IMG/VR virus record: IMGVR_UViG_3300021426_000084
Strand: one strand, 5' to 3'
Length of the DNA stretch: 15,972 nt
Source: a virus
Lineage: Duplodnaviria > Heunggongvirae > Uroviricota > Caudoviricetes
Part shown: positions 1 through 15,785 of the stretch, one piece after another
How the letters are laid out: every line of letters begins with the position of its first letter
Numbering within the stretch: the first letter of the stretch is position 1
Program-made: the position numbers and the translations under genes
Notes under the pieces: model-generated
The model's database searches: none
Told to the model about the DNA's origin: nothing
Seen by the model: the letters and a program-made list of their open reading frames with translations, nothing else

Positions 1-126
1 GGTGCCGTTCGGCAGGCATTGAAAAAAGCCAAACAATGTCTGCATGAGGGTGTAATACATGGCCGGATTTATCTTGATGCCCCCAGCAGCAGCCCAATAG
101 GAAAATTGGCAAAAGTAATAGCATAA
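1..126 (+). CDS. 3' end of an upstream hypothetical protein (...GRIYLDAPSSSPIGKLAKVIA*), truncated by window edge
   Basis: Frame 1 is open from base 1 to TAA at 124-126, same strand as all other genes. Confidence 0.55.
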   Translation, partial: GAVRQALKKAKQCLHEGVIHGRIYLDAPSSSPIGKLAKVIA

Positions 127-179
127 AAAGTACATAGTGAGCATATCTTTGTATACGGGTGAAATTTACCGAGAACTTC

Positions 180-236
180 TTGACACATACCCATTGTCTT
201 GTTTATCTTGAGAACTTTGCTTCTCTCTGTTATAAT
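180..236 (+). promoter_or_regulatory. sigmaA/sigma70-type promoter(s) of the TA operon
   Basis: TTGAGA (208-213), 17 bp, TATAAT (231-236) with extended TG; a second possible TTGACA (180-185), 18 bp, TATCTT (204-209); 8-bp direct repeat GAGAACTT at 171-178 and 210-217. Confidence 0.75.
194..211 (+). repeat. Hairpin-less copy of the TTGTCTTGTTTNYYWTGA motif
   Basis: TTGTCTTGTTTATCTTGA, 17/18 identical to copies at 1468, 3718 and 5406; no triloop hairpin upstream. Confidence 0.7.
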
Positions 237-253
237 TAGAGTAGGTGAGAGTT

Positions 254-568
254 GTGAATATATCAAAAATAAGAAAGCTGTGTCTTCAATATGGCGTAAG
301 GATTTCTCGCCACGCCAGTGAACGACTGGACGAGAGAAATATAACCATAGACGAAGTAGAACAAACCATATTGTATGGTGAAGTTATAGAGGAACGTCCA
401 TGGAGTACGCCACTGCCATCATGTCTGATGTTTTATATACATATGAATGGGCGCCCTATCCATGTGGTTGTTGGGTTAGATGGTGACAATGATGAAATAT
501 CGCTTATAACAGCATATATTCCCAGTAGCGACAAATGGGAAGACGACTTTAAGACGAGGAGGAAATAA
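254..568 (+). CDS. DUF4258-family (RelE/BrnT-like) putative toxin
   Basis: Motifs SRHASERLDERNITIDEV, SCLMF...GRPIHVVVG, LITAYIPSSDKW...KTRR are typical of DUF4258; GTG 254 has an AGGTG RBS (ORF track start 245 lacks one); coupled to a YgiT-type zinc finger gene. Confidence 0.85.
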   Translation: MNISKIRKLCLQYGVRISRHASERLDERNITIDEVEQTILYGEVIEERPWSTPLPSCLMFYIHMNGRPIHVVVGLDGDNDEISLITAYIPSSDKWEDDFKTRRK

Positions 569-569
569 C

Positions 570-794
570 ATGACTTGTGCAACTTGCGGCGGCAGCATAA
601 ATGGTGATAAGCTCACTGTATACTATGCGCATTATAATGGTTATCTGATATCTATAAAGAATGTTCCTGGAGCAGTATGCCCACAGTGTGGAGAAGTATG
701 GTATAAGTCTCCTGTGTTGAAGCGGGTAAAGGCTCTTATTGAAGAAGCTAAAAAGACAATAGACAGCAATATTGTCATGGATTACGCGGCGTAA
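570..794 (+). CDS. YgiT/MqsA-type zinc-finger protein, putative antitoxin (no HTH)
   Basis: CxxC (CATC) ... NVPGAVCPQCGEVWY motif; GAGGAGG RBS inside the toxin 3' end; ends DYAA. Confidence 0.85.
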   Translation: MTCATCGGSINGDKLTVYYAHYNGYLISIKNVPGAVCPQCGEVWYKSPVLKRVKALIEEAKKTIDSNIVMDYAA

Positions 795-828
795 AATATG
801 CGTCCGTTGTGATGTGGTTACTACCGTT

Positions 829-863
829 GTCTGCTCCGCAGACGATTGTCTTGTTTCTTATGA
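829..863 (+). repeat. Triloop hairpin + conserved tail, copy A
   Basis: GTCTGC-TCC-GCAGAC (829-843), then TTGTCTTGTTTCTTATGA at 846. Confidence 0.85.
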
Positions 864-881
864 ATAACTAAAAATAACATG

Positions 882-916
882 TAAGCTCCAGTCTGTATGG
901 CTGGGGCTTATTTTAT
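882..916 (+). terminator. Terminator-like RNA hairpin with U-tract
   Basis: TAAGCTCCAGTC / GGCTGGGGCTTA 12-bp stem with G-U pairs, followed by TTTTATT. Confidence 0.55.
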
Positions 917-942
917 TGCCTGTAAAGGAGATGTGTATAAAT

Positions 943-1422
943 ATGTTACTCAATAAAATGACTGCACATGAAAGAAAGGCTCTGTTTGGATTGTGTGCTT
1001 TAATGCTGCATAATGCCATGGCTAATTCTGAGGCATTTGTAGTGCCCCTAGCTATAAGAGGGTGTATTACTTCTGATGTACTTGGTCTGTTAAAAGCAGA
1101 GTGGGTAGACGGAAGGAAAATGCGCGCCCAAAATGTTAAGGGCGTTACCCCTCAGCAGGTAGCCATGGCCATGGTAAAGGCAGATGTCGTCGAGGTGCCC
1201 CAGGTGGCAACGGGGCCTTCGGCCGAGGAGGGAATGAAACCCCAGCTGGATAGTGAATCTGTCCTGAGCGCCGGGGCTGTATTTACTACGGCATCGAAGC
1301 GCAAGTACAAGGTTGTCACCAAGTTTGACCTCGCCGAGTATCTTGCATCTTCTCCTGCAAACAAATGCCGTATCATCGCTGGTGCGGTAAAAGACTGTGC
1401 CATCGAGAAAGTTGCCGCATAA
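943..1422 (+). CDS. Hypothetical protein, C-terminal ...KVAA
   Basis: ORF 916-1422; AAGGAG at 925-930 makes ATG 943 the likelier start. Confidence 0.7.
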   Translation: MLLNKMTAHERKALFGLCALMLHNAMANSEAFVVPLAIRGCITSDVLGLLKAEWVDGRKMRAQNVKGVTPQQVAMAMVKADVVEVPQVATGPSAEEGMKPQLDSESVLSAGAVFTTASKRKYKVVTKFDLAEYLASSPANKCRIIAGAVKDCAIEKVAA

Positions 1423-1447
1423 CATCGAGCTATTCAGTTAGTGTCTC

Positions 1448-1485
1448 ATCGCCCTCCGGGCGATAGGTTGTCTTGTTTATTTTGA
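1448..1485 (+). repeat. Triloop hairpin + conserved tail, copy B
   Basis: ATCGCCC-TCC-GGGCGAT (1448-1464), TTGTCTTGTTTATTTTGA at 1468. Confidence 0.85.
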
Positions 1486-1520
1486 ATATGTTTTTTTGTT
1501 TTTTACAGGAGGAAATCAAT

Positions 1521-1799
1521 ATGTTTGACGTAAAAGAGCTTAACAAGAAGATTAAAGAGATTGGCGTTGATAAAATCAGATATATTGCCGAGGAGGAAGA
1601 TGGCGGCAATGAATGGAGCTCCTATATCGATCTCGACGACAGCAACGCAAAACAATACTTCGGTTTTGACCTTAAGACCGAGTCTTTCCAGGATAACATA
1701 ACGGAATCATGGGAAGGTTATCGTATTGACCCCAGCCCGTTTGACGGTATGTTCGATATTGTCTTCTATGGGTACGGCACGGCATATCAGTTGGATTGA
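1521..1799 (+). CDS. Small acidic, aromatic-rich hypothetical protein (92 aa)
   Basis: AGGAGG RBS before ATG 1521; 21 D/E vs 9 K/R. Confidence 0.8.
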   Translation: MFDVKELNKKIKEIGVDKIRYIAEEEDGGNEWSSYIDLDDSNAKQYFGFDLKTESFQDNITESWEGYRIDPSPFDGMFDIVFYGYGTAYQLD

Positions 1800-1827
1800 C
1801 ATCGAGGTTTCTTAGGTAAAGACAGCT

Positions 1828-1862
1828 GTTCGCTCCGCGAACGGTTGTCTTGTTTTTCATGA
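1828..1862 (+). repeat. Triloop hairpin + conserved tail, copy C
   Basis: GTTCGC-TCC-GCGAAC (1828-1842), TTGTCTTGTTTTTCATGA at 1845. Confidence 0.85.
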
Positions 1863-2196
1863 GAGATTGTTCCTGACGTGTAGGAGAAGTACTGGAATGC
1901 TTCCGACACTTACAGATGGAACGGTTATGTGTACAGGAAGAATGTTCCAGCATTCTCGACACTTGCGCAAAACCAGGAGAGGTCGTTATGGCTTCTCACA
2001 GATGATATCAGATATTAGAACTCAATAATATTCTGGTGTCATGTGTGAGCAGTCCTAAGGCAAGGGATTGCCCCCTCCTATAGTAAAAAACAAAAGGGGA
2101 GGTTCCCAAACATACCGTTTGGGGCCTTCTCAAAGTCATGATATTTTTCTTCTCCGGGCAAGCTGATTTTGTGGTTTGCCCGGTGTTTTCTTTTTT
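1863..2196 (+). ncRNA. Candidate structured ncRNA or leader (family not recognised)
   Basis: No credible ORF; nested stems 1871-1978, ~23-bp stem 1995-2049, GGCAA-GGGA-TTGCC (GNRA loop) 2059-2072, CCCAAAC/GTTTGGG 2105-2123, terminator at the end; G-U pairs favour the + strand. Confidence 0.4.
2154..2196 (+). terminator. Intrinsic terminator-like hairpin
   Basis: CCGGGCAA / TTGCCCGG stem followed by TGTTTTCTTTTTT. Confidence 0.65.
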
Positions 2197-2249
2197 ATCA
2201 TGTTTTTGAGAAGGTTTGTTTTTCTCTATAACAGAAAGGAAGAGTAGCT

Positions 2250-2657
2250 ATGACTATCTATGTTGTGGAATCTGAAATATACTATGACGGAACTCCTGAA
2301 GTGAATATCGAACAGGTATTTGCCGCCCGCAAGGACGCAGAAGTGTTCGTGGCAAAAGCAAATGCTTTTAATGCCGTGCTGTCAAACAAACCATGTTTAC
2401 GCATTATAGAGCATGAGGTTGCAGAAAGTGAAAACTTCCAGCCGCAAAACATTTGCGTGTCTATCTGGGAAGCAGAAAATGGTTCGCTTTCAAGACCATA
2501 TGTGTTTGCAACGGCAAAAGATGTGCATCCTATGGAGCGCGAGGAAGAGCCGAACTGTATAAACTACGCCGCCAGTTGGAGGGGAGTGTTCCCTTATCAG
2601 GAAGGCGTGACCAAAGAAGAACTGGTAAAAAAGGCCTTCGGCCAGTGCAAAAAATAA
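2250..2657 (+). CDS. Hypothetical phage-type protein
   Basis: GAAAGGAAG RBS; N-terminus IYVV...QVFAARKDAE resembles a common small phage beta-alpha domain. Confidence 0.75.
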   Translation: MTIYVVESEIYYDGTPEVNIEQVFAARKDAEVFVAKANAFNAVLSNKPCLRIIEHEVAESENFQPQNICVSIWEAENGSLSRPYVFATAKDVHPMEREEEPNCINYAASWRGVFPYQEGVTKEELVKKAFGQCKK

Positions 2658-2670
2658 AGGAGCGCAAGCA

Positions 2671-3102
2671 ATGACAAAAGAGGAATTAAGAGACAAACTC
2701 AATGAAGAGCGTGGCTCGATGACAGGGCTCTGCTCCACCGAGCTTGCTTTGGAAGTATGTAATATGGTGTTGAGTGAATGCAGCGCGCCCATGTTTGCAG
2801 GAAACGATATTGCAGAAACCGAAGTGGGCAGTCTTGCCATAAGCTTTGAGGCAAGGGAATTTAGTGGCTGGCTCCGTGAGTATGCCAGTGCAGACATGTC
2901 GCTTTGCACGGCAGAAAAAGTGAGCAGGCTACTGGAATACTTCGGTATCAACAACACCGTATGGTATGCCTACAAGGGAGTTCGCCAAAAAGACTTCCGG
3001 CATATCAGTCTGCCCATGTCCAGAATCCGCGAGGAATATCCATATCTTTGGAAAACCTGGAGTGGAGAGCCCATTTATTCAGAGAAAAATGGTGTAGCGT
3101 AA
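2671..3102 (+). CDS. Hypothetical protein (ends ...GVA)
   Basis: AAGGAG RBS; operonic with 2250-2657. Confidence 0.75.
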   Translation: MTKEELRDKLNEERGSMTGLCSTELALEVCNMVLSECSAPMFAGNDIAETEVGSLAISFEAREFSGWLREYASADMSLCTAEKVSRLLEYFGINNTVWYAYKGVRQKDFRHISLPMSRIREEYPYLWKTWSGEPIYSEKNGVA

Positions 3103-3122
3103 AATAGAAAGGGAGATATGCC

Positions 3123-3518
3123 ATGAAAAAGTATGCATTGAAAATCGTCCGTAATAATGTTATGATAATTCCTGTTTGGGACGTAACCTACGGCAAGTTT
3201 GCTACGCTTGCCTACGAGCTGGTTATCCATCATTATCTTCCGGGCTCCTTTGACCGCTGGGAGATAGTATCGCGGCATGGTTGCACTACGAAGTACAAGG
3301 ACAAACTTACCGGAGAAACAGCTTATAGTTGGCTGATGAAAAACGGCAAGATTGTGTCGGACTTCGATGAGGAAGATAAGCCGCAGAGCAAACCATTCAC
3401 GGTATTTGCTAATGGCAAAGCTGTAGGGTGCGACAGTGTTCAGCAGGCCGCCCGCATGGCTGTCAATGCAATCTTTGACCGTATCCACCGCCCGGCCATT
3501 ATGCGCCGCGCATCATGA
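3123..3518 (+). CDS. Hypothetical protein (ends ...RRAS)
   Basis: AAAGGGAG RBS; operonic spacing. Confidence 0.75.
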   Translation: MKKYALKIVRNNVMIIPVWDVTYGKFATLAYELVIHHYLPGSFDRWEIVSRHGCTTKYKDKLTGETAYSWLMKNGKIVSDFDEEDKPQSKPFTVFANGKAVGCDSVQQAARMAVNAIFDRIHRPAIMRRAS

Positions 3519-3536
3519 TTTAGGAGGAATTGGAAA

Positions 3537-3692
3537 ATGGAAGTCTGGATAGTTTTACTCTTTCTTGCAAGTATCTTGTATTTTGTCATTCTCATTGGCT
3601 GGGTAATTCTGTCAGCCATTTGGGAAAGTATTCAGGAAACCTACTTTCCCAAGAAAGAATCCCGCGACAACAGAAAGAGATATACCCACTGA
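3537..3692 (+). CDS. Small single-pass membrane protein, 51 aa (MEVWIVLLFLASILYFVILIGWVILSAIWESIQETYFPKKESRDNRKRYTH)
   Basis: Not in the ORF track; AGGAGG 3523-3528 is 8 nt before ATG 3537; ~27-residue hydrophobic stretch then a charged tail; the track ORF 3530-3760 is in a different frame. Confidence 0.75.
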   Translation: MEVWIVLLFLASILYFVILIGWVILSAIWESIQETYFPKKESRDNRKRYTH

Positions 3693-3700
3693 CTGCCGTT

Positions 3701-3735
3701 TCGCCCTCCGGGCGATATTGTCTTGTTTATTTTGA
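3701..3735 (+). repeat. Triloop hairpin + conserved tail, copy D
   Basis: TCGCCC-TCC-GGGCGA (3701-3715), TTGTCTTGTTTATTTTGA at 3718. Confidence 0.85.
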
Positions 3736-3774
3736 GATGATTTTTTTGGACGCATTGTGAAAGGAGCGTTTATC

Positions 3775-3924
3775 ATGAAAAAGACGTACATCTCGATTGA
3801 ATGGGGCGACCAGAGAACACGGTTTGAAAGAGCCGAGGCAATCAGAAAAGCCTTGGAGCTTGTAGCTCGTAAGGCACAAAAACCAAATACGCTGGAAGAA
3901 AAAGCCGCCCGCAAAGCGGCTTAA
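3775..3924 (+). CDS. Small basic protein, 49 aa (MKKTYISIEWGDQRTRFERAEAIRKALELVARKAQKPNTLEEKAARKAA)
   Basis: Not in the ORF track; AAGGAG 3761-3766, ATG 3775, TAA 3922-3924; ends AA like its neighbours. Confidence 0.75.
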   Translation: MKKTYISIEWGDQRTRFERAEAIRKALELVARKAQKPNTLEEKAARKAA

Positions 3925-3975
3925 TTTTTTTGCCCGAAAATATTTGTGTAGTTTTGGAAAAGGAGAATGAACACC

Positions 3976-4374
3976 ATGGAAATGAAAATGTATTTTAACG
4001 CTAAAGAAATGCTCGCCGTAAAGAAGCTGATGGAATCCTTCGGCCAGACCTTTGTCCGTGAAGACCAGTATGAGGTAGATGGCCCCATTCGCTTCAGCGT
4101 GAACCATGTAGATGGCGAGGCTATTGTCACCATTGCCAGCAACGACAATTTCTTCTGCGATGTGCTGGGTATCTTCAGCCGCAACGCCGGTCTCATCAAG
4201 AACGTAATCGGCGTTGGCAAGAGTCTGTTCGAACTCTGCAAGAGCACGGTAAACATCCTGGAGGGTGAGCTTGATACAGTATGCAAGAAGTACCGCACTC
4301 CGGTCAAAGATGAACACATTAAACCGTACGGCAGTTTTACTACTGAGCCGGTAATCGACAAAGAGGCCGCGTAA
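3976..4374 (+). CDS. Hypothetical protein, C-terminal ...KEAA
   Basis: AAGGAG 3960-3965 fits ATG 3976 better than 3967. Confidence 0.8.
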   Translation: MEMKMYFNAKEMLAVKKLMESFGQTFVREDQYEVDGPIRFSVNHVDGEAIVTIASNDNFFCDVLGIFSRNAGLIKNVIGVGKSLFELCKSTVNILEGELDTVCKKYRTPVKDEHIKPYGSFTTEPVIDKEAA

Positions 4375-4421
4375 AAACTCGCGTCGCTTGCTGTTGATTT
4401 TTTAGAAGACGAAGGGACTGA

Positions 4422-4601
4422 ATGTATATGAAAAGATTTATCAAATGGTATTTAGGAGACGACAAGGCAGTAAGTGACGAGAAGGTTTTGGCCCGCCGGC
4501 AGAAATTTGTCGGTGGAGCCAAGGCCATAGCAGAACAGGCAGTAGACGTGATTGCAACCGGCGCGGTTGTATTCTACGCCGTCGCAAGAAACATTCGTTA
4601 A
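4422..4601 (+). CDS. Small protein, 59 aa (MYMKRFIKWYLGDDK...TGAVVFYAVARNIR), hydrophobic C-terminal segment
   Basis: Not in the ORF track; GAAGGGA RBS 4411-4417; fills the gap between neighbouring genes. Confidence 0.65.
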   Translation: MYMKRFIKWYLGDDKAVSDEKVLARRQKFVGGAKAIAEQAVDVIATGAVVFYAVARNIR

Positions 4602-4620
4602 GAAAGGCAGGTTGCTAATC

Positions 4621-4788
4621 ATGTTCAATACAAATGCAAACACAGAAAAAATCCGTAAACATAACCGCATCTACAGCGAAGGCCGCGAAGCAAGAATGCT
4701 TCGTGACCGCGCCAAGCGGAAGATGACCCGCAGGGACTATGACCGCCTTGCGGAAGAAAAGTATGCCGAGTATAAAATAGCGGCATAA
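4621..4788 (+). CDS. Small basic helical protein, 55 aa, C-terminal ...KIAA
   Basis: AGAAAGGCAGG upstream of ATG 4621 (track start 4552 overlaps the previous ORF). Confidence 0.7.
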   Translation: MFNTNANTEKIRKHNRIYSEGREARMLRDRAKRKMTRRDYDRLAEEKYAEYKIAA

Positions 4789-4863
4789 CCGATATTTTGG
4801 CTGGAGACGCCGCAAGTAATTATCCTCTTGTCTGGATAGTGCCGTCTTCGTCCAAATTCCACT

Positions 4864-4896
4864 TCGCCCTTCGGGCGACATTGCTTTGTTTTTATG
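4864..4896 (+). repeat. Triloop hairpin + conserved tail, copy E (variant tail)
   Basis: TCGCCC-TTC-GGGCGA (4864-4878), TTGCTTTGTTTTTATG at 4881. Confidence 0.8.
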
Positions 4897-4900
4897 GGTT

Positions 4901-4956
4901 CCTGGCGCTCCCCAACCCCCTATGGGCTTCCCCTATGCGTCAGGGGCCTATTTTTT
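4901..4956 (+). terminator. Terminator-like hairpin with U-tract before the 4978 gene
   Basis: CCTGGCGC / GCGTCAGG stem with a large loop, T6 at 4951-4956. Confidence 0.4.
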
Positions 4957-4977
4957 ATCAAAGAAAGGAAATGACCT

Positions 4978-5247
4978 ATGGTATTTCAGAATGACCTGGA
5001 AAGTGTATTCCCTGAAAGCTACTACCGGTTCTTGCCGGCCAAGAGACTGACCACTCTTTGCGATAGCTTCCATATCGTAAGTGACGGCAGTGAACTTGAC
5101 GTTATCCGCAGGGACACCCTTGAAGGAAACGTCGTAACAACCGCCCGCCTTAAAAGCGAGGCCGGCGAGACTATCTTCTTCACCGCCCATACCACCTATG
5201 GTGACTTACTGCATCTTGTGGACAAAGAGGCAGAGGCCGCCGCATAA
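4978..5247 (+). CDS. Hypothetical protein, C-terminal ...EAEAAA
   Basis: GAAAGGAA RBS 7 nt upstream. Confidence 0.8.
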   Translation: MVFQNDLESVFPESYYRFLPAKRLTTLCDSFHIVSDGSELDVIRRDTLEGNVVTTARLKSEAGETIFFTAHTTYGDLLHLVDKEAEAAA

Positions 5248-5388
5248 ACCCCCACCTTGGCAAAAAAAGAGGAGCTTTGAGCCCCTCATAGTACGTCGAA
5301 GAATGTTTGTTGCCTCCTACATTTTTCGGCGCACTATGAAAGGCTTGAATCCCAAAGTAAAAATCCCCTTTCCAAGAACAGAACTCTT

Positions 5389-5423
5389 GTCTGCTTCGCA
5401 GACGATTGTCTTGTTTATTTTGA
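5389..5423 (+). repeat. Triloop hairpin + conserved tail, copy F
   Basis: GTCTGC-TTC-GCAGAC (5389-5403), TTGTCTTGTTTATTTTGA at 5406. Confidence 0.85.
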
Positions 5424-5618
5424 GAGGATTTTTCCGCCCGCATACATACAGATTATATAACTAACTTACGTCTGTCTCCTGTAAGCAGGGCTGAGCTGAT
5501 TTTATCCTTTCACCGTCGTAGCCCCAGAAAACGGACAGTAGTCCAGAAATGTTCATTTGTAGCCCGCTGAAGCGAAATGCTGATAAAAAGCGGGATAAGA
5601 AAAAGGAGTGTTTTATTT

Positions 5619-6548
5619 ATGGCAAACGTAAATGAAATGATTAAGGCAGAAGCAAACAAGGTATCCCGCCGCGAAGCATTGATGGCAAACCTCGATAAGC
5701 AGATGGAGGCAACCAATGTGCTGACGGAAAAAGCCCGCGCAAAACGCGAGGAGGAACTCAAGAACAACACGGTTATCATGAGTGTCGTCAGTTCCCGGGG
5801 TTACGTCGGTCTGGTTGCCGGCGATATTGCCCAGGAAATCGTTGAGCCCGCTGTTGTGGCCAAGGCCGTAAACAAGAAGACGGGTGAAGTTATGACCGCG
5901 CCCGTTGCGACGTTGAATGGCGTGCGTCAGGCTCTCCATAAGGCCGCAGAGTATGGCAAAGACCATCTGGTTCTTTATGTCAATGACTTTGAGGCTCGCC
6001 GCATTTCCGGCATGCTCAACCGCATTGGTAAGGGTTCGAACGAAGTGCTCACGGCAAAAGAAGTTGAACACATTTCCAGCCCGACCAATGCCAGCAAGTA
6101 TGGCAACAGCTACATTGCCTATGCGAAAGGCGTATTCCTCGACCTGAAGGCGGCGCTCGAAAAGTTTAAGTCCATTCGCGTGATGGGCCACAACGCCATC
6201 TTTGGCTGGGAACTGAAGTACAGCAATCTGCCGCTGGATATGGAAAACATGGAGCTGACCTTCAGCAAAGGTTTTGCGTCCACGACCTTTAAGGGGCGCA
6301 ATTATCGCATCAGCCTTGCTTCCGGCTTCAAGCTCAATGGCAAGCACAAACTGGTAAAAGCCAATGGTTCTTTGGTGGTTGGCCGTGAAATCAAAGAAGG
6401 CTCCGAGCAGGAAACCGCCCGTGACCTGTTGTCCATTGTCAACAAGACGATTATCATCAAGGACAACACGGACCGCAGTGAAGCCATTGTGAATGAAGGT
6501 GCAGGCATCGACGCTCCGGCTGAAGAAGCCATCGATTTCGCCGCATAA
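5619..6548 (+). CDS. Hypothetical protein with a possible degenerate RNase H-like domain, C-terminal ...DFAA
   Basis: AAAGGAG RBS before ATG 5619; segment ATLNGVRQALHKAAEYGKDHLVLYVND ... KAALEKFKSIRV resembles the RNase HI helix A/strand 4 pattern (by eye only). Confidence 0.8.
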   Translation: MANVNEMIKAEANKVSRREALMANLDKQMEATNVLTEKARAKREEELKNNTVIMSVVSSRGYVGLVAGDIAQEIVEPAVVAKAVNKKTGEVMTAPVATLNGVRQALHKAAEYGKDHLVLYVNDFEARRISGMLNRIGKGSNEVLTAKEVEHISSPTNASKYGNSYIAYAKGVFLDLKAALEKFKSIRVMGHNAIFGWELKYSNLPLDMENMELTFSKGFASTTFKGRNYRISLASGFKLNGKHKLVKANGSLVVGREIKEGSEQETARDLLSIVNKTIIIKDNTDRSEAIVNEGAGIDAPAEEAIDFAA

Positions 6549-6566
6549 GCAAATACATGCAAAAAG

Positions 6567-6604
6567 ACTGGGCTGTCAGCAGTTGATGGCCCAGTTTGTT
6601 TTTA
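6567..6604 (+). terminator. Intrinsic terminator-like hairpin
   Basis: ACTGGGCTGTCA / TGATGGCCCAGT stem followed by TTGTTTTTA. Confidence 0.6.
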
Positions 6605-6629
6605 TCGTCAAGAAAGGACGGAAACCAAA

Positions 6630-6920
6630 ATGATTATGAACAAAGTATGCCCGAAACATATCGTATTCCCGAAATCCAACCGTGCCAATTCCAAAGTAAA
6701 CTGGAGTCTTACCAAGAACCTCCCCAATGGCTGGGTAAATATCTCCGCCAAAATCCCCCAGACTTGTCTGGATAAATACGGCTTTATCAGCCGCGACGTA
6801 ATCAATTTGCTCCGCACTCCATGCGCAGACAGCCGGTTTAAGCTTCGTTCGCTGTACAGAGTGGAGGTCAGCTATGACTACCACCTTATCGAAGACGCAG
6901 TTATGCCGGTTGCCGCTTGA
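6630..6920 (+). CDS. Hypothetical protein, C-terminal ...PVAA
   Basis: AGAAAGGA RBS; 96 aa. Confidence 0.75.
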   Translation: MIMNKVCPKHIVFPKSNRANSKVNWSLTKNLPNGWVNISAKIPQTCLDKYGFISRDVINLLRTPCADSRFKLRSLYRVEVSYDYHLIEDAVMPVAA

Positions 6921-6950
6921 TAGTCGGTTGCCCCTTGAGGAGGGATTTTA

Positions 6951-7772
6951 ATGGAAACACAAAAAGATACAAAAAATACTCAGGGGGCTGACCCTATCCT
7001 CAGCTTCCTGAATGATACCATCGATACATTGCTTACGCCTGAAGAAAAACAGGAGAAAAAGCAAGAACCCATCGATGTCACACCCACGCCCAGAGAGACG
7101 GAAGAAGCAGAGCCGGCGCCAAAAGAAGTAAAAAGCGTCGACCAGATTGCTGATGAATTTGCACAGGAAGTTGCAAAAAATGTACAGGAGGAAATCAAAA
7201 TGAGTGAACAGAAAGAAACACAGGTAACCATCGACAGTGAAACCGGCGAGGTAGTGCAGGAGAGGTTCTCCAAGACCTTTGAGAACCGTCAGGAAGCCAA
7301 CAACCTGTTGGACTTGCTGGACAGCCTTGGTTATGAAGACAGCTATGAAACCAGCGATGGTGGCAAGACGGTTATCCTCTCTGGTGTTAACGCCGAGGAT
7401 TTACAGCTTATCCAGCGCAAGGCAAACATCAAGCTCTGGTCAGACCGCACGCAGGCAGTTGCCAAAGCCGTCACCACGTTTGCAACCGATGTGGCAGACT
7501 ATGCTTTGAATGGCGCACTTGCTCCGACGGCAGGGGCTGTCGTAAATGCCGGTATGACCACAGGCAGGGTTGTTGCGACTGCCGCTGTTTCGGTTGGCGC
7601 CGCAACGCTTGCTACGACTATCCGCAACGGCAGAGCCGCTGCCCGCGAACTTTCCCGCAATAAGGACGTTCGGGACGCCTGGAATGAAGTGAAAGGTTTG
7701 GGCTCCGATATTGGCGGCTTGCTCTTTGGCTCCAAAGGCGGCACTAAATCCGACTGGACAACGTGTGCCTGA
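6951..7772 (+). CDS. Hypothetical protein: acidic disordered N-terminus, Ala/Gly/Val/Thr-rich amphipathic C-terminus; second in-frame start at 7200
   Basis: AGGAGG at 6938-6943 and again at 7186-7191, 8 nt before in-frame ATG 7200. Confidence 0.85.
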   Translation: METQKDTKNTQGADPILSFLNDTIDTLLTPEEKQEKKQEPIDVTPTPRETEEAEPAPKEVKSVDQIADEFAQEVAKNVQEEIKMSEQKETQVTIDSETGEVVQERFSKTFENRQEANNLLDLLDSLGYEDSYETSDGGKTVILSGVNAEDLQLIQRKANIKLWSDRTQAVAKAVTTFATDVADYALNGALAPTAGAVVNAGMTTGRVVATAAVSVGAATLATTIRNGRAAARELSRNKDVRDAWNEVKGLGSDIGGLLFGSKGGTKSDWTTCA

Positions 7773-7786
7773 TTTACAGAAAAACG

Positions 7787-7820
7787 TCCGTCCGCAATTT
7801 CGCGGGCGGATTGTTTTTTT
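7787..7820 (+). terminator. Intrinsic terminator
   Basis: TCCGTCCGC / GCGGGCGGA stem followed by TTGTTTTTTT, directly after the 7772 stop. Confidence 0.75.
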
Positions 7821-7855
7821 ACGCATACTTAAATAACCCGAAGGAGGATACTGTT

Positions 7856-7990
7856 ATTCTTGCACTGCTATACGCTCTGTTCGAGATAGGTTCCGAAATG
7901 AACCAGATTATCGAAATAGAGATAGAGAAAGACCAGCGCGAAATCCAAAGGCTCAAAGAGGAGCAACGAAAACTTCGCGCCCGTAAGTAA
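7856..7990 (+). CDS. Possible small protein (hydrophobic N-terminus + charged coiled coil) with ATT start, or pseudogene
   Basis: Perfect AAGGAGG 7841-7847 followed 8 nt later by in-frame ATT rather than ATG; alternative ATG at 7898. Confidence 0.35.
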   Translation: MLALLYALFEIGSEMNQIIEIEIEKDQREIQRLKEEQRKLRARK

Positions 7991-8430
7991 TCCTGCCGCA
8001 GAAATTCGTACTCATGAAAGGAGTGAGATAAGCACCATGGTTGTTGTGACATATTTAGAAAAGCTATACAGATTATCCAGAACACTAACCCATCCCAGAA
8101 CAATAGCTTATGTCACAAATACCAAAACTGATATGGTTGCCAGCCCCTTCCCCACCCAAAAGAGACAAGAAGAAAGACCTCTAAGACACTTTTTGGTTAA
8201 ACAAACTGTTAAGTGTCTGCACACATCCCGGTTGGGACTTATCATCGCCCGGCCGCAGAACTGCACCACGGGAGATATTAAGGCACCACCCCATATATAG
8301 GCTCCAGGCCTTCAGCCTAACCTTATGAGCGCAGATTGATATACTTGTTCGGTCAGACCTTGTGAGCGCAGACAAAATAAGAAACTGCCTGACAGGCGAA
8401 CAAGAAAAATCAAAAGCTCATATTTTGTTA

Positions 8431-8705
8431 GTGCGAGCGAGCGAAGCGAGCGAGCACATCAAACAATATTTAATCCCCAAACAACTAATCAAACAAGCGA
8501 AAAGAACAGAGCTTGTTTATATATGCGAGCGTAGCGAGCATATAAAAAGAAAACAAATATTTAAAAAAGCATACTAACTTTTACAGACATTGTAAAAAAT
8601 AGTATACGACCTACCCGAAGGGCAGAACGAAATATATACATGAAATGACAAAAGAATGTATATATTAAGTCATGCCCCTATTAAGGGGCGAACGAAGTGA
8701 GCCCC
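8431..8705 (+). repeat. Cluster of four GNA-triloop hairpins on the + strand, three with tandem GA/GA mismatches
   Basis: GTGC-GA-GC-GA-GC-GAA-GC-GA-GC-GA-GCAC (8431-8457); TATATGC-GA-GC-GTA-GC-GA-GCATATA (8520-8544); CCC-GAA-GGG (8614-8622); GGGGC-GA-AC-GAA-GT-GA-GCCCC (8685-8705). Confidence 0.8.
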
Positions 8706-8859
8706 GGCAAACACTCATGCGGAAAGATATCACCTATATAGTCTATCAGAGACAAAAAGCGGATATCTTTTTGTAAGATTACCTCTTTACTTAAAAGAAC
8801 GAGTTCTATATCTCCGCCCGCAAAGAGTTCTTACATCTTCTCCGCATGGAAATAACCAC

Positions 8860-8898
8860 GCGCGTCCTCCGGCGCGCAAATTGTACTGTTCTTTATGT
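8860..8898 (+). repeat. Degenerate triloop hairpin + tail, copy G
   Basis: GCGCG(T)CC-TCC-GGCGCGC (8860-8877), TTGTACTGTTCTTTATG at 8881 (13/17 identical to the tail of copy A). Confidence 0.55.
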
Positions 8899-9120
8899 GT
8901 ATATCTCATATCCACCAACAGAGAGAGGTAGACTGTATACGTTATCTCTCTCTTTCCCTATCACATATTCTTTTATATCTCCTAATCCCCTTTATTATAT
9001 ATGCAGCACGCATACTCATTATATGTGTGTAAGAAATAAGGGTGTATATATAAGAGCTATTAGGATAAAAAAAGAAATATATGAATGAATGAATGTACAT
9101 ATAGAGAACGGTATAATTTA

Positions 9121-9144
9121 GCGGGCGAGCGTAAGCGAGCCCGC
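9121..9144 (+). repeat. Tandem-GA hairpin, left flank of the Bro/Rha gene
   Basis: GCGGGC-GA-GC-GTAA-GC-GA-GCCCGC. Confidence 0.8.
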
Positions 9145-9194
9145 ATAACCCAAGCCGCGTCAGGTAAATGACAGTCAGAAAGGAAGATTATGTC

Positions 9195-11180
9195 ATGGAT
9201 AGTATAGACATCATCCACGTAGCAGACAAAAAGCTTATCTCCAGCAAAGAGATAGCAAGGCTGTATAAAATCAAGCATGCAGAACTCTTTGAGTTTATTG
9301 AAGCCCTGTGTAAGTTTGATCCTTACGAAAGGGCATTATTCCAAAAAGCCGAAGGTCATTACCTTATGGAAGAAAAAGGTTTTCTGGCCATACTGACGTA
9401 CGCGTCTCTTGATAAAGAGCGTGACAACATTAAGACAGAGGTGTGTAAGATGTTGAGTAAAAATAGCAAAGGCAAATCCAAAGACAAAATTCCGGCACAG
9501 AATTTACCCGCTGCAGAACCGGAGCAAATTTTTACCGCCCACGGCGAAAGAGTCAAATTTTTGACAGATTTTCAAATTGGCGGACAGAATTATCATCTCT
9601 ACGACGCAGGTATGCAAAATTTGCTGGTCAAAGCCACAGATTTATGCGCATGGCTAAATTTTGTAAAACGTTCGTGGGGAGGATATGATGGCAGCAGACT
9701 GGCGAAAAACCTCGGCGCCGATGAAAAGATAAAAGTCAATATCATAGAGGTATTGGGTAACAAGAGTAGGATACGCAAGCAGTGGCTTGTGACTCTGGAC
9801 GCTGTTCAGAAGATTATTAACTCTGATACTTATCGCGAGCGCATGGATAAGGATATCAGAGAAAGCCTCAACAAGATGATTGACGACATGAACTCCTCCA
9901 CGGTAGGAGAGTCTCCTAAACCTATTGTCATCCCGGATACAAAAGTACAGGTTCAAGAGAAGCTCCCCGACTGGTTCGCTTGTGAGGTGGTTGGCAGCAA
10001 TGACGATATGGAATGGCTGAATGAACTGCCGCCCGAAAAGAATATCACTCCACAAGAGAAAACCGAAGGAGAGGCAGATGGAGAGAGCGCTAAACCCATG
10101 AGCGCAGAATTACAGATTGTAACCGAGCAGGAAGTGCTTGGCAGAAACTTTACCGTGTATGGCACGGCAGAAGAACCATTGTTCCTGGCCAAGGACGTGG
10201 CTGAGATGATTGAGTACGACAGATCTTCCGTACACAAAATGTTGAATACGGTTGAGGAGGAAGAAAAGGTTCGGAAGATTGTTCCGACCCCTGGTGGAGT
10301 ACAAGAGTCATGGTTCCTTACCGAAGATGGTCTGTATGAAGTCTTAATGCAGTCCCGCAAACCAATCGCCAAGCAATTCAAGAAGCAGGTTAAGGCAATC
10401 TTAAAACAGATTCGCAAAACCGGAGCGTATATGTCCCCGCAAGTTGCGGCAGATATACAGCAGGTCATTGTACAAAACTCTGAGGCAATGAAGCAGTTTG
10501 GTCATCTGGTTATGCAAAACTCACAGATTGCTGCACAAAATACGCAGCTTATGGCTCAGCTCGTACAAATGATGACTGAGCGCATAGATAAGAATGGTGA
10601 GCTCGTATCAAGAATCAGCACAGCTGTAGAACAGTCTGCTCAGAATACAAACCTCATCAGTAAGATGGTTAATCAGCTCGGGCGCAATATTACTACGGCC
10701 ATCAAAGACGCAAATACTACGCCGGCCTTGACTGCCACGGATAATAATCTGCCTGCAGGTAACAGTGAACCGGATATCACTGGCTGCATAACCCTGAAAG
10801 CGGCTGCGGAGAAACATGGTTTCTATACCATCAAAACAGGTAAGCCGAATTATTCACTGGTAGCAGACATCTTAAAATATGGCTGCGGTATAATGCTTAC
10901 CGTTATCCCAGGATACAAAGATGACTATATCATAGTCAAACCGACTGTATCCGTCCGCGGCGATATTCGTCCATGTATCTTCTTAACAGTTAAAGCTCAG
11001 ATTAAGTTAAATAACTATATAGTATGCCATATCCATAAGATACTGAAAGTAGAGACTTATAAGAGAGCTTACAACCATAAGTTAAAAGGAGACTGGAGAT
11101 TTGACTACATACAGTTCCCAGGCAGGAGGAGACACATCATTGCCAACAAGAATGGTATGGTTAAAAAATTCGCCGCGTAA
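9195..11180 (+). CDS. Multidomain phage antirepressor-like protein: Rha-like N-terminus, degenerate Bro-N, canonical Bro-N, Gln/Asn coiled coil, C-terminal domain; ends ...KKFAA
   Basis: ISSKEIARLYKIKHAEL resembles Rha-family starts; GTAEEPLFLAKDVAEMIEY...FLTEDGLYEVLMQSRKPIAKQFKKQV..IRKTGAY is a typical Bro-N; GAAAGGAAG RBS favours ATG 9195 over 9168. Confidence 0.85.
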   Translation: MDSIDIIHVADKKLISSKEIARLYKIKHAELFEFIEALCKFDPYERALFQKAEGHYLMEEKGFLAILTYASLDKERDNIKTEVCKMLSKNSKGKSKDKIPAQNLPAAEPEQIFTAHGERVKFLTDFQIGGQNYHLYDAGMQNLLVKATDLCAWLNFVKRSWGGYDGSRLAKNLGADEKIKVNIIEVLGNKSRIRKQWLVTLDAVQKIINSDTYRERMDKDIRESLNKMIDDMNSSTVGESPKPIVIPDTKVQVQEKLPDWFACEVVGSNDDMEWLNELPPEKNITPQEKTEGEADGESAKPMSAELQIVTEQEVLGRNFTVYGTAEEPLFLAKDVAEMIEYDRSSVHKMLNTVEEEEKVRKIVPTPGGVQESWFLTEDGLYEVLMQSRKPIAKQFKKQVKAILKQIRKTGAYMSPQVAADIQQVIVQNSEAMKQFGHLVMQNSQIAAQNTQLMAQLVQMMTERIDKNGELVSRISTAVEQSAQNTNLISKMVNQLGRNITTAIKDANTTPALTATDNNLPAGNSEPDITGCITLKAAAEKHGFYTIKTGKPNYSLVADILKYGCGIMLTVIPGYKDDYIIVKPTVSVRGDIRPCIFLTVKAQIKLNNYIVCHIHKILKVETYKRAYNHKLKGDWRFDYIQFPGRRRHIIANKNGMVKKFAA

Positions 11181-11270
11181 AATGCACGTATAAGGCCGCA
11201 GATTATTTTCTCGTATCCCCATACGGGAAATACATAATGTGCAAATAAAGGCCCATATACGATGAAAAAA

Positions 11271-11294
11271 GCCGGCGAGCGTAAGCGAGCCGGC
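11271..11294 (+). repeat. Tandem-GA hairpin, right flank of the Bro/Rha gene
   Basis: GCCGGC-GA-GC-GTAA-GC-GA-GCCGGC; same core as 9121-9144 with compensatory outer stem. Confidence 0.8.
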
Positions 11295-11395
11295 AAACAT
11301 ATATATGCGCGCCAAAATTTTACGGGACCATTCAGGTCTCCTTAAAATAGCGTATATATTATCCCCTATAAGTCATATAGGATCATTTAGACCTT

Positions 11396-11481
11396 ATGAG
11401 CGCAGCTCATTTATGCCCGACATACCCATACAGGAGTATTCCCCTTAAAAAAGCATAAGGGAAGCCCACAGCGCGAAGCGC
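11396..11481 (+). repeat. Two GNA-triloop mini-hairpins
   Basis: ATGAGC-GCA-GCTCAT (11396-11410); GCGC-GAA-GCGC (11471-11481); CCTTRTGAGCGCAG is also present at 8321-8334 and 8358-8371. Confidence 0.65.
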
Positions 11482-11637
11482 ACAATTTTTCAAGAGTGTA
11501 AACTAGGTATACTGTACAAGTACAACAGTATTGCAACTATGATACAGGAGACCAAAATCAGGGAAAATTATTTATTTATCCCCTAGAGGGAAATAACACT
11601 TTTCCCAAAACAGGTTTACACTTTTGCAAAATTCTGC
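11480..11637. repeat. 24-bp imperfect inverted repeat, 110 bp apart
   Basis: GCACAATTTTTCAAGAGTGTAAAC (11480-11503) vs reverse complement of 11614-11637 (GCAGAATTTTGCAAAAGTGTAAAC), 21/24; internal hairpin ATACTGT/ACAGTAT. Confidence 0.7.
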
Positions 11638-12300
11638 AGTACGAGATGTGGTACTCCAGGGTCAAATATACAGATATATTTGCGGAGAGGCATACCAAAA
11701 ACCCTAAGCCAATATATGAGTGATACGCTTATATGAGACGCAAGTAAGAAGGTAAGTAAGAAGGAAAAGGAAGAGCTGAAAATAGCTCTGAGAAAACGAC
11801 TTCAAAAATGCTCCTCAGTGGCCTCAAAAGGCCTCTCCAGTGCATTTGAAGAGAAAATTTTCCGAAACGGCGTCGAAGATAAGAAAACGCTCACAGATGG
11901 CTTAAAACGGCCAATTTGGGAAGCCGTGTTGTACACGCTTTTCACACGAGATTATGCGCCTTTCTTGCGCATATGATATGCGAGGTGTGCAAAATCGTAA
12001 AGTAAAACCGGCTTCGTTTTTGCAAAATAGGTAAATTTTTACCTTATGTTAGGAGTTGCACCTGGCTCGCCCCACAAATACAAAGCTACATAAAGCTGTA
12101 TAGGGCCGCATATCGCGCGAATACATGAGCGCGTCGCCCCGCAAAGCAGTAGCTCTCTCCACATACGTACAACGCTGCTCCACCAACAAATACAAGGTTA
12201 GAATCCCATAGGGCGTAGCCCAGAGACAAAGAAAGCATGTTAAAACCGGAAAATATTTTTCCTTAATTACAAGCTCTATAGAATTTTGTACACACCCTTC

Positions 12301-12330
12301 TTGACAATGAGGGGTTTTAACGTGTATATT
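12301..12330 (+). promoter_or_regulatory. sigmaA-type promoter of the right-hand gene block
   Basis: TTGACA (12301-12306), 18 bp, TATATT (12325-12330). Confidence 0.65.
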
Positions 12331-12384
12331 ATGTGTAAGAAGTAAGTAAGAAGGTAGCCACAAGTGAGGTGTAAGACAGATTAT

Positions 12385-12963
12385 ATGTTGACCGGTATAT
12401 TGAAGATGATGTTAGGTGTAGAAGAAAAACCGAAAGAAGATAAAGCTACGTCTAAGAAAGAGTCCAAGGATATCATACATCCCTTCCCTAATGCTCCGGT
12501 AAAGATTGACTTTATCTCCAGTAAGCTTATGGGGAGATACTGTCCGGAGTATATTGCCGCGCCCGGAGGAAGGATTTTTACGGTAGCAGAAGAAGATATC
12601 CTTGCAAAGGCGATGTTTGCCGCCTGTGTGCGTTACTACAACTATCCTATCACCAAGAGTACGATTGATTCATTTGAAGCATTTGTCGTACAAAAATGTA
12701 GGGAAAGGTCTGTTAAGGACACTGTTGTTAAGAAGTATAACACCCTACAGGAACAATTGAATGAGCTTAATATTCGCGTAGAAGATACTTTCGCGCGCAA
12801 TCATCCCAATCGTATGTATAGGCATAATCCAGATAGAGAGTACCTGAACATGTGTAGTGTTTATGAACAGAATCAGGCTTATAAAGAATTCGCAAAGAAG
12901 TTGGATACGGAAAAAGAATTACGCAAAAAGGAATATGAGAAGTATAGGAGTATCTGGTATTAA
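12385..12963 (+). CDS. Hypothetical protein
   Basis: Long ORF (track 12364-12963); start uncertain (GTG 12364, ATG 12385 or 12406). Confidence 0.75.
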   Translation: MLTGILKMMLGVEEKPKEDKATSKKESKDIIHPFPNAPVKIDFISSKLMGRYCPEYIAAPGGRIFTVAEEDILAKAMFAACVRYYNYPITKSTIDSFEAFVVQKCRERSVKDTVVKKYNTLQEQLNELNIRVEDTFARNHPNRMYRHNPDREYLNMCSVYEQNQAYKEFAKKLDTEKELRKKEYEKYRSIWY

Positions 12964-13048
12964 CAGCTGAGACGGAAAATAATGCGCGCGAGGTATTAGG
13001 ATATAGTCTGAATATTTCGGATATTTAATAGAAGGAGCAAGAAGAAAA

Positions 13049-13909: not shown

Positions 13910-14078
13910 TGAACTACAAGATTGTATGGCCAGTGCTAAGGAAATTACTTTGTCAGGCAATGAGGCCTTCAAAATATACTGCAAGCTGCGCAGATGTGAC
14001 GAACTGCAGGAAGAGAATGACAAGCTGAAAAGAATTTTCCGTGACATTAAACAGAGAATGAGTTATGTAAGCGTATGA
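13884..14078 (+). CDS. Small coiled-coil hypothetical protein
   Basis: GAGAGGA RBS, overlaps the upstream gene end; start 13875 or 13884. Confidence 0.65.
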   Translation: METNARKIDELQDCMASAKEITLSGNEAFKIYCKLRRCDELQEENDKLKRIFRDIKQRMSYVSV

Positions 14079-14090
14079 GGGGATAAGATT

Positions 14091-14855: not shown

Positions 14856-14893
14856 CTGTATGTGCGTAAGTAAGAAAAGGAGACTGATATATA

Positions 14894-15751: not shown

Positions 15752-15785
15752 AACTCATGAGGATAGCAGAAAGGAAAGTTGAATC

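Follow-up and report, generated by a model that had tools for sequence, protein, structure and literature searches.

Template-strand DNA mini-hairpins and C-terminal Ala-Ala tails in the non-structural arm of a jumbo phage from the animal gut

This analysis concerns a 15,972-nucleotide stretch of viral DNA (Caudoviricetes; IMG/VR record IMGVR_UViG_3300021426_000084), referred to throughout as the window, and two features of its genes: short DNA hairpins placed ahead of the gene units and proteins that end in Ala-Ala (AA tails). The window is part of the non-structural arm, probably the early region, of a very large contractile-tailed (jumbo) phage from the animal gut or rumen. Six hairpins with covarying stems are oriented such that the template strand forms a hyperstable GNA DNA mini-hairpin, which the coding strand, with its TYC loops, cannot form, and C-terminal Ala-Ala is over-represented about 10–20-fold. 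A combined explanation, in which the hairpins are promoters like those of phage N4, the AA tails are degrons and the two long gaps between genes are a single non-coding region that has been split, is judged to be about evenly poised between right and wrong. The presence of ClpXP and of a giant RNA polymerase (RNAP) in a relative suggests a built-in programme of transcription followed by destruction.

Over positions 191–11711, the window matches the opening 11.5 kb of the IMG/VR record G001 (224,101 bp; reverse strand) at 98% identity; positions 1–190 and 11712–15972 are missing from that record. One arm of G001 encodes the terminase large subunit, portal, major head protein, tail sheath and tail fibres. 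Of the further relatives, L023 (record G003, 211 kb) is likewise 98% identical, and L024–L026, which include G002 (235.5 kb), are more distant, with orthologues at 39–91% protein identity; in all of L023–L026 the region of the window is internal to the contig. The contigs of the relatives measure 211–235 kb and one contig with the polymerase gene discussed below measures 327 kb, such that the true genome may be larger. A 41.9-kb contig from the probable source sample, an animal-gut metagenome, spans 161–15972 unbroken, through both gaps. Statements about the whole genome rest on the relatives G001, G002 and G003, all sequencing runs were examined as assembled contigs, and both RNA runs derive from one study.

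Hairpin elements and their candidate polymerase

Each of the six hairpins is followed by the motif TTGTCTTGTTT (TTGCTTTGTTT for the copy at 4881), with 10 nt between the loop centre and the motif (12 nt for the copy at 1468), and the full block after the stem and 3-nt loop reads TTGTCTTGTTT(aTTTTGAga). The motif or a one-mismatch variant occurs at the positions listed in Table 1, and a scan of the window allowing ≤2 mismatches returned 12 matches against 1.9 expected (0/200 shuffles). The stems are perfect, 6–7 bp long and free in sequence, and the loop is TCC or TTC. An alignment of 14 distinct copies of the element, drawn from the window, L023, L025, G001 and G002, holds the six core pairs in 14/14 copies with compensatory double changes at five of them (0/500 shuffles), along with an invariant loop-closing C-G pair. 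The covariation score was 0.734, compared to 0.245 for shuffled alignments (0/500) and ≤0.21 for slid controls. Read on the template strand, all 14 copies are GC-G(G/A)A-GC or CC-G(G/A)A-GG, which corresponds to the published requirement of DNA mini-hairpins for a GNA loop and GC-GC or CC-GG closing pairs (PMC13037366; PMC4496689). The initial annotation had described template-strand hairpins ahead of the transcription units, and this description is borne out by the six covarying elements.

The elements are also confined to few places. When the sequences were scanned genome-wide for perfect C-TYC-G hairpins of ≥6 bp, the element sites were the only ones found (6 in the window, 9 in G001 and 6 in G002), and in each of them the GRA loop is carried by the template strand of the local genes. 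The exact motif occurs as 6 copies in the 235.5 kb of G002, all on one strand, five of them within 4 kb and one 36 kb downstream. When a viral collection was scanned for motif and loop with no stem requirement, 76 of the 84 matches listed had stems of ≤2 bp, and the 8 listed matches with stems of 6–7 bp were all from this phage group.

The elements lie 65–415 nt upstream of the next start codon and 9–142 nt past the preceding stop codon, and position alone thus fits a promoter or a terminator. With slightly more confidence than doubt, the elements are read here as promoters. The template-strand mini-hairpin would be extruded and then read by a phage RNAP, as at the early promoters of N4, with transcription starting near the G located 12 nt from the loop centre. 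The virion RNAP of N4 (mini-vRNAP) binds a mini-hairpin with a 3-base loop, a 5-bp stem and a GGA or GAA cap (e.g., GCGGAGC), recognizing a purine at the loop centre with the stem free in identity and initiating at a fixed distance (PMC13037366; PMC4496689). Two RNA contigs of the X17 metatranscriptome begin at elements 4 and 6 and run downstream, each starting exactly 18 nt past the loop centre (Table 1), and no RNA contig ends at an element, a pattern that favours initiation. Initiation is also favoured by the strand-specific conservation of the loop and its closing pairs, which a terminator does not require, and by the restriction of the element to few sites with ordinary terminators of a different construction nearby. 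Also in favour of initiation, a sigma-70 -10 hexamer is found in one copy only; the TTGAGA block was considered as a sigma-70 promoter and rejected for the same reason.

The alternative is that hairpin and TTGTCTTGTTT together terminate transcription between cassettes of small genes, as intrinsic terminators or as ones that only the phage polymerase recognizes, or that they are dual terminator/promoter cassettes; conservation of the loop would then reflect polymerase-specific termination and not initiation. A GC-rich stem followed by a T-rich tail is listed as terminator-like by a simple consensus scan, the elements follow an upstream stop codon at short range, and the virion RNAP of phage P23-45 offers a precedent with its conserved 26-nt terminator motif in the pre-early region (PMC10770324). 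The ordinary terminators of the same window have longer stems, larger loops and pure T runs, whereas in most copies of the element the stem and the T-rich tract are separated by 2–4 non-T bases and the tail is interrupted by a conserved G and C. The elements are limited to 6–9 sites in genomes of 224–235 kb, being missing from the remaining ~200 kb. Together with the RNA contigs that start just past hairpins, these differences leave the terminator or dual-function explanation a real but minor share of the probability, with what remains going to other roles. Several observations nonetheless count against a promoter, including the consensus scan and the P23-45 precedent. The transcript evidence consists of contig starts, which cannot prove a transcription start, in assembled contigs from a single study, and one RNA contig of run X10 (5352–6828) reads through an element. 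Additionally, nearest-neighbour DNA energies do not separate the two strands, and the predicted strand asymmetry draws on the published mini-hairpin rules.

A candidate reader of the hairpins is encoded in the structural arm of G001, which holds three consecutive giant open reading frames (ORFs) of 2230, 3102 and 2922 aa, the second of them situated between the head genes and the tail/virion genes. Residues 2099–2899 of the 3102-aa ORF have 17 relatives in a library of 1.8 billion proteins, and the motif R-x-P-x-x-Y-x-x-S...D-x-D-G-D shows no variation among 14 relatives with identities as low as 23%. An AlphaFold model of this polymerase region (predicted local distance difference test, pLDDT, 73) gave at least 238 Foldseek matches at E≤1e-3; the best 50 of these are RNAP beta-prime chains, the best at 5e-7 with a Foldseek probability of 1.0. 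Over the barrel, VIA-align Z values of 6.0–7.7 were obtained with archaeal, Pol I/II/III, mycobacterial, vaccinia, AR9, phiKZ and P23-45 gp96 RNAPs. As modelled, the 3102-aa protein carries an RNAP beta-prime-like double-psi barrel with the DxDGD motif. The protein is the likeliest reader of the hairpins, and would be packaged in the virion and injected with the DNA.

Searches at the sequence level were less informative. Comparison of the three giant ORFs with the PDB detected an HNH motif only, and a profile search from the polymerase-family alignment returned no match. A search of G001 with PF00940 (T7-like RNAP) returned no match either, a result that is uninformative as the control genomes were equally without a match. 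A search for a second barrel in the upstream segment (model pLDDT 60) returned generic helical matches only. Four points weigh against the 3102-aa protein as the reader of N4-like promoters: it is not of N4's T7-like type, a single barrel has been demonstrated, its packaging is deduced from the position of its gene, and the polymerase gene, like clpXP and the transfer-messenger RNA (tmRNA) gene described below, was found in relatives and not on the window's own contig. The other two giant ORFs, L007:2400-9092 (G001 62400–69092) and L016:1-8769 (G001 78523–87291), may be ejection proteins; one has the HNH motif near residues 1967–1998 and one matches a long PHROG labelled endolysin (E=1.7e-178).

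Ala-Ala tails and the ClpXP protease

AA tails are found on 9 of the 19 proteins encoded up to position 11180 (binomial P=4e-15 against an internal Ala-Ala dipeptide frequency of 0.7%; gene ends in Table 1). Genome-wide, they occur on 12.7% of G001 genes (26 proteins) and 5.8% of G002 genes (18 proteins), compared to 0.5–0.7% expected. The tails are confined to the non-structural arm: in G001 they are on 24/90 non-structural and 2/114 structural genes (P=6e-8), and in G002 on 16/91 and 2/219, respectively (P=1e-7). None of the ~89 genes that G002 has between 196 kb and the end of its contig carries an AA tail. C-terminal Ala overall is ~3-fold enriched (48/204 in G001).

The AA tails are maintained where the surrounding sequence is not. 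Ala-Ala is kept in 7/7 orthologue pairs between the window and L025, even at 49–55% identity and with unrelated preceding residues, and in 10/10 orthologues between G001 and G002, whereas terminal dipeptides of other kinds are kept in 49/93 (P=0.0045). Restricting the comparison to pairs that have diverged over the six residues upstream gives 4/4 and 3/25 (P=0.0015). The tails draw on each of the four Ala codons and each of the three stop codons, indicating selection at the level of the protein; a GCSGC nucleotide motif at gene ends was considered and discarded, given that the four Ala codons are all in use genome-wide. As judged from these comparisons of sequence, the AA tails are under purifying selection that is independent of the upstream residues.

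The tails match the C-terminal degron of ClpXP. A screen of random tags in E. coli found that ClpXP degrons depend critically on terminal Ala-Ala (91% of the top 100), with upstream residues tuning degron strength (bioRxiv 10.1101/2024.01.29.576913). In the nine tails of the window the residue at -3 is aliphatic or aromatic in six, Ala in one and charged in two. The AA tails would thereby act as ssrA-like degrons read by the ClpXP of the host and, in the G001 lineage, also by a phage-encoded clpP-clpX pair, and the predicted degradation would limit the lifetime of early and replication proteins.

The phage pair is encoded in G001. Its ClpX exceeds the cut-offs of two curated equivalog models (NF003745, 433 bits against 359; TIGR00382, 408 bits against 371), and a zinc finger, Walker A and B motifs, GYVG pore loop and RKH loop can be read in the sequence. 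The adjacent ClpP matches Pfam CLP_protease (1e-52, 175 bits) and has the positions of the Ser-His-Asp triad; among NCBIfam models it scores 172 bits, under the cut-off of 249, and just 80 bits with the head-maturation model. The operon (L014:17495-19476, equal to G001 217495–219476, - strand) lies ~100 nt downstream of the distal hairpin element, with two tandem GRA-loop hairpins upstream of it (G001 219596 and 219615), and both of its products end in Ala-Ala, so that the position of clpP-clpX behind a hairpin element and the tails of its products tie the two features together. By tblastn, G002 lacks both ClpX and ClpP, and neither was found in G003. G002 encodes a tmRNA (202719–203117) with the tag DEVEYRLAA; a cluster of 13 transfer RNA (tRNA) genes plus the tmRNA extends over 197761–210553 of that genome.

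Not all of this evidence favours degradation. In the screen above, strong degradation requires Ala-Ala but is not ensured by it (bioRxiv 10.1101/2024.01.29.576913), and the -3 residue is charged (K, E) in two of the nine tails of the window. G002 retains its tails without ClpX or ClpP, so the phage protease is not required for their retention and the tails must be readable by a host protease. The AA-tailed proteins of G001 include a Dda-like helicase, PhoH, primase, a Rad52-like protein, the UvsX/RecA recombinase, both topoisomerase II subunits, ClpX and ClpP, and the presence of replication enzymes in this set points to control of protein lifetime rather than a simple early shut-off. The initial annotation had proposed proteolytic shut-off of small transient orphans, with degron-like tails ending at 11180. 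The proteolytic part of that proposal is retained as plausible, in that the tails are selected, match the ClpXP degron and belong to a lineage with ClpX and ClpP or tmRNA, but the restriction to small orphans fails with the helicase, primase, recombinase and topoisomerase, and so does the boundary, as AA tails resume on 5/20 genes within the next 10 kb of the source-sample contig and extend ~45–50 kb on both sides in the relatives.

Those same long-needed enzymes, the AA ends of ClpX and ClpP themselves and the insufficiency of Ala-Ala alone would also suit a selected role other than degradation, whether as a docking tag for remodelling by ClpX that involves no proteolysis, as decoys that saturate the host ClpXP or as a context for translation termination. 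A signal in the nucleotides or in the termination context is unlikely given that every Ala and stop codon is in use, terminal Ala-Ala was dominant among the strong, ClpXP-dependent C-terminal degrons of an unbiased E. coli screen, and the lineage has a ClpP with catalytic residues and a tmRNA with an LAA tag, all of which point to proteolysis. A non-degradative role is therefore considered improbable, and the reading of the AA tails as degrons is preferred.

Non-coding gaps, other genes and the origin of the window

Every credible gene in 1–15972 is on the + strand according to a codon-usage-trained gene caller, the gene calls of the source contig and comparison of orthologues (Table 1), in agreement with the rightward orientation originally reported. 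The small orphans, put forward in the initial annotation as anti-defence or host-takeover effectors, have no confident Pfam or PHROG match, no tRNA genes are present in the window, and Rfam returned no match for the whole window at E≤1. Between element 3 and the terminator that follows it, ~300 nt without a convincing ORF (1845–2190) are a candidate small RNA or leader.

Table 1 Features of the window
Feature	Position	Strand	Remarks
High-copy sequence	1-190		Depth ~575 versus 26 for the phage (~20x); loose ends at 190 in three runs, assembly branches beyond
Motif copy ATTGTCTTGTTT, no hairpin in window	193-236 (motif at 194)	+	Hairpin present in G001, L023, L025
Sigma-70-like promoter TTGAGA-17-TATAAT	208-236	+	Overlaps motif copy; precedes DUF4258/MqsA-like pair
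DUF4258 protein	245-568	+	Toxin-antitoxin-like pair with 570-794
MqsA-like zinc-finger protein, ...DYAA	570-794	+	Antitoxin-like partner
Element 1, GTCTGC-TCC-GCAGAC	829-865 (hairpin 829-843)	+	Motif TTGTCTTGTTT at 846; template reads GCGGAGC
Orphan gene, 159 aa, ...EKVAA	943-1422	+	
Element 2, ATCGCCC-TCC-GGGCGAT	1448-1487 (hairpin 1448-1464)	+	Motif TTGTCTTGTTT at 1468
Element 3, GTTCGC-TCC-GCGAAC	1828-1864 (hairpin 1828-1842)	+	Motif at 1845
Conventional terminator	2154-2183	+	Strong, 12 bp
Gene, ...GVA	2671-3102	+	...SVA in L025
Element 4, TCGCCC-TCC-GGGCGA	3701-3737 (hairpin 3701-3715)	+	Motif at 3718; X17 RNA contig begins 3726
Small gene, ...RKAA	3775-3924	+	
Small gene, ...KEAA	3976-4374	+	
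Small gene, no AA tail	4422-4601	+	
Small gene, ...KIAA	4621-4788	+	
Element 5, TCGCCC-TTC-GGGCGA	4864-4900 (hairpin 4864-4878)	+	Variant TTGCTTTGTTT at 4881; canonical in L025
Orphan gene, 89 aa, ...EAAA	4978-5247	+	
Element 6, GTCTGC-TTC-GCAGAC	5389-5425 (hairpin 5389-5403)	+	Motif at 5406; template GCGAAGC; X17 RNA contig begins 5414
Gene, 309 aa, ...DFAA	5619-6548	+	RNA-contig depth highest of window
Conventional terminator	6565-6597	+	
Gene, ...PVAA	6630-6920	+	
Gene without AA tail, ...TCA	6951-7772	+	...ACA in L025
Genes without AA tails	7763-7990, 8037-8300	+	
Conventional terminator	7786-7811	+	
Gap 1	8301-9167	+	No credible ORF
Direct repeat ACCTTRTGAGCGCAG	8317-8335, 8354-8372, 11388-11406		Conserved in L025; candidate protein-binding site (operator or iteron)
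Second-family hairpins, stem-GA-GC-G(N)NA-GC-GA-stem	8431-8457, 8520-8544, 8685-8705, 9121-9144, 11271-11294	+	GNA/GNNA loops on + strand
Bro-N domain protein, 661-670 aa, ...KFAA	9168-11180	+	
Gap 2	11181-12363	+	No ORF >52 aa; non-coding in distant relative too
Mini-hairpin GCGCGAAGCGC	11471-11481		In gap 2
Sigma-70-like promoter TTGACA-18-TATATT	12301-12330	+	11/12 consensus positions; conserved in distant relative
Five genes without AA tails	12364-15751	+	
MYG1-family (UPF0160) protein, phage-encoded	14894-15751	+	

Gaps 1 and 2 are collinear with a single non-coding region of ~1.85 kb in L025. As read from this alignment, they are one ancestral non-coding region that was split by insertion of the Bro-N gene. 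The gene is flanked by two copies of GCSGGC-GA-GC-GTAA-GC-GA-GCCSGC, the last two hairpins of the second family in Table 1, with compensatory changes in the stems (GCGGGC/GCCCGC and GCCGGC/GCCGGC), and L025 has one copy and no Bro-N gene; from its sequence, Bro-N looks like a cassette inserted at a hairpin. This second hairpin family is found only in the non-coding region, has covarying outer stems of free sequence, and occurs as 4–5 copies in the window and 3–4 in G002, on the + strand only, with none in 20 shuffled genomes. RNA contigs of the two runs cover neither 7996–9061 nor ~11.7–12.8 kb, which is to be read as absence of cover only.

The gaps are best regarded as a conserved regulatory or origin-like non-coding region and not as an origin of DNA entry. 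A more specific role for the ~2-kb region as a replication origin or priming site, or as a regulatory hub, built from the + strand G(N)NA mini-hairpins with tandem G-A pairs and the three ACCTTRTGAGCGCAG repeats, is possible but doubtful. It would suit a hairpin family that is limited to one strand of this one region and kept in G002, repeats that are conserved in L025, and an AT content that places the most AT-rich 500 bp of G002 here. Mini-hairpins are known at the G4 origin and at ssiA, the latter read by a primase of the archaeo-eukaryotic type (PMC13037366), and the phage primase has a weak, below-cut-off match to this type (PF01896). Conversely, the GC-skew extremes do not single out the gaps and fall ~16 kb upstream, where the gene arms diverge, and the region could equally be a non-coding RNA comparable to the long intergenic early-region RNAs of the crAss-like phage phi14:2 (bioRxiv 10.1101/2020.03.07.982082).

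The start of the window may have a separate history. Megablast of the window against a phage collection returned no match, and the sole match in a plasmid collection was 131 bp of Selenomonas, which places positions 60–190 at 84.7% identity to a plasmid of Selenomonas ruminantium. From 191 onward the window is homologous to G001, and this junction coincides with a copy of the hairpin-element motif. The coincidence suggests either that the elements are boundaries of recombination or of mosaicism, or that the first 160 nt of the window derive from a shared repeat. At the other end, the G001 contig stops at window position 11711 and the depth of run X2 falls nearly to zero past ~11727, which fits strain divergence at this point and could explain the break in the contig.

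Several parts of the original description of the gaps are retained. The 1.2-kb gap after 11180 is non-coding and carries special hairpins, and the region beyond it has an ordinary sigma-70-like promoter and genes to 15751 without AA tails, though this absence does not extend past the window. The model built on the gaps takes the region for the leading part of a conjugative element or for the end of a phage genome that enters first; an origin or terminus in 11190–12380 or 8300–9150 would admit the minus strand, and single-stranded DNA (ssDNA) promoters would fire on that entering strand. This model is very improbable. In its favour, genes do point toward the gap, strand-specific mini-hairpins are abundant in the gaps and resemble those described for origins of ssDNA replication and priming (PMC13037366), and the G001 contig happens to end at 11711. 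Against it, terminase, portal, major head, sheath and fibre genes define the element as a phage, the source contig and those of two other relatives run through the gaps, the region is internal in relatives with GC-skew extremes ~16 kb away, the X2 depth drop fits strain divergence, the hairpins are of 15–17 nt and not ~100–300 nt Frpo-like folds, and AA tails and co-oriented genes continue past the gap. What stands of the hairpin-activated transcription in that model is the set of template-strand features that resemble an N4 promoter.

Relation to known systems

To our knowledge, only N4-like phages are known to use hairpin promoters, and the crAss-type virion polymerases still lack defined early promoters. 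The element, combined with a giant, putatively two-barrel polymerase, would offer a concrete template to test, and, if the pairing is correct, the element would be the first promoter type defined for the class of ssDNA-preferring virion polymerases and recognition of hairpin promoters would have arisen more than once. In the literature searched, no hairpin promoter has been reported for this polymerase class, no viral protein-lifetime code of the present kind has been described, and the combination of AA tails with strand-polar GNA hairpins has no published description. Such a code is what the AA tails, with phage ClpX/ClpP and tmRNA in close relatives, would amount to, and the tails could help to assign temporal classes and to recognize short-lived effectors in phages that have not been cultured, with the sequence as the only input. 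The most far-reaching version of this reading is speculative and rather unlikely: an injected giant two-barrel RNAP would read N4-style GNA mini-hairpins, in convergence with the T7-like enzyme of N4, and the same promoters would switch on a phage ClpXP that forms, with the AA tails on two dozen proteins, a self-contained programme of protein lifetime.

Among the systems available for comparison, the Frpo-type leading regions of conjugative elements share co-oriented small orphans and a DNA secondary structure proposed to activate transcription; they differ from the present region, which belongs to a tailed phage without transfer genes, has mini-hairpins that do not mimic a -35/-10 duplex and enters as duplex DNA. 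In T4-type phages, early promoter and stem-loop (PeSL) cassettes flank mobile small genes. They resemble the present elements as a repeated stem-loop at the boundaries of small orphan genes, and homology between strains here breaks exactly at an element (window 191). Unlike the PeSL cassettes, the present elements have a sigma-70 -10 hexamer in one copy only and a loop that is strand-specific and conserved.

The AA tails correspond most closely to the ssrA tag and the C-motif-1 degrons of ClpX (...LAA-COOH), with which they share a terminal Ala-Ala and a mostly non-polar residue at -3. The tmRNA tag of a relative ends in LAA, and a close relative encodes a ClpX with an RKH loop and a GYVG pore loop. 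The tails differ in being genome-encoded on ~6–13% of the phage proteins (≤27% in one arm), instead of being appended to stalled chains or restricted to a few regulators.

The candidate polymerase resembles the giant two-barrel virion RNAPs of phi14:2 (gp66) and P23-45 (gp96, fused to the tape measure protein) in its very large size, in the location of its gene among structural genes and in a catalytic double-psi barrel with an Asp-rich metal-binding motif (DxDGD here, DFDxD in the crAss-like enzymes). Both gp66 and gp96 transcribe the earliest genes. The present protein has no detectable sequence similarity to either, and a single barrel has been demonstrated in it. For the crAss-like gp66, single-stranded or denatured DNA is preferred and no upstream motif is common to the early transcripts (bioRxiv 10.1101/2020.03.07.982082), P23-45 gp96 uses an AT-rich promoter motif, and the non-virion RNAP of AR9 reads the template strand (PMC5449584).

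The comparison with the early promoters P1–P3 of N4 is the closest for the elements, despite several differences. The present phage is a jumbo myovirus-type phage and not a podovirus of the Schitoviridae, and its candidate polymerase is beta-prime-like. The position equivalent to -8G is G in 8/14 copies only and C in the other 6/14, the downstream block TTGTCTTGTTT is different, the first template C, and with it the first possible G start, lies 12 nt from the loop centre and not 11, and there are 6–9 copies and not 3. Shared with N4 are a stem of free sequence (5–7 bp in P1–P3), a 3-nt G(G/A)A loop on the template strand, a GCGRAGC-type closure, a fixed short distance to a conserved downstream block and a small number of copies within one block of co-oriented small genes.

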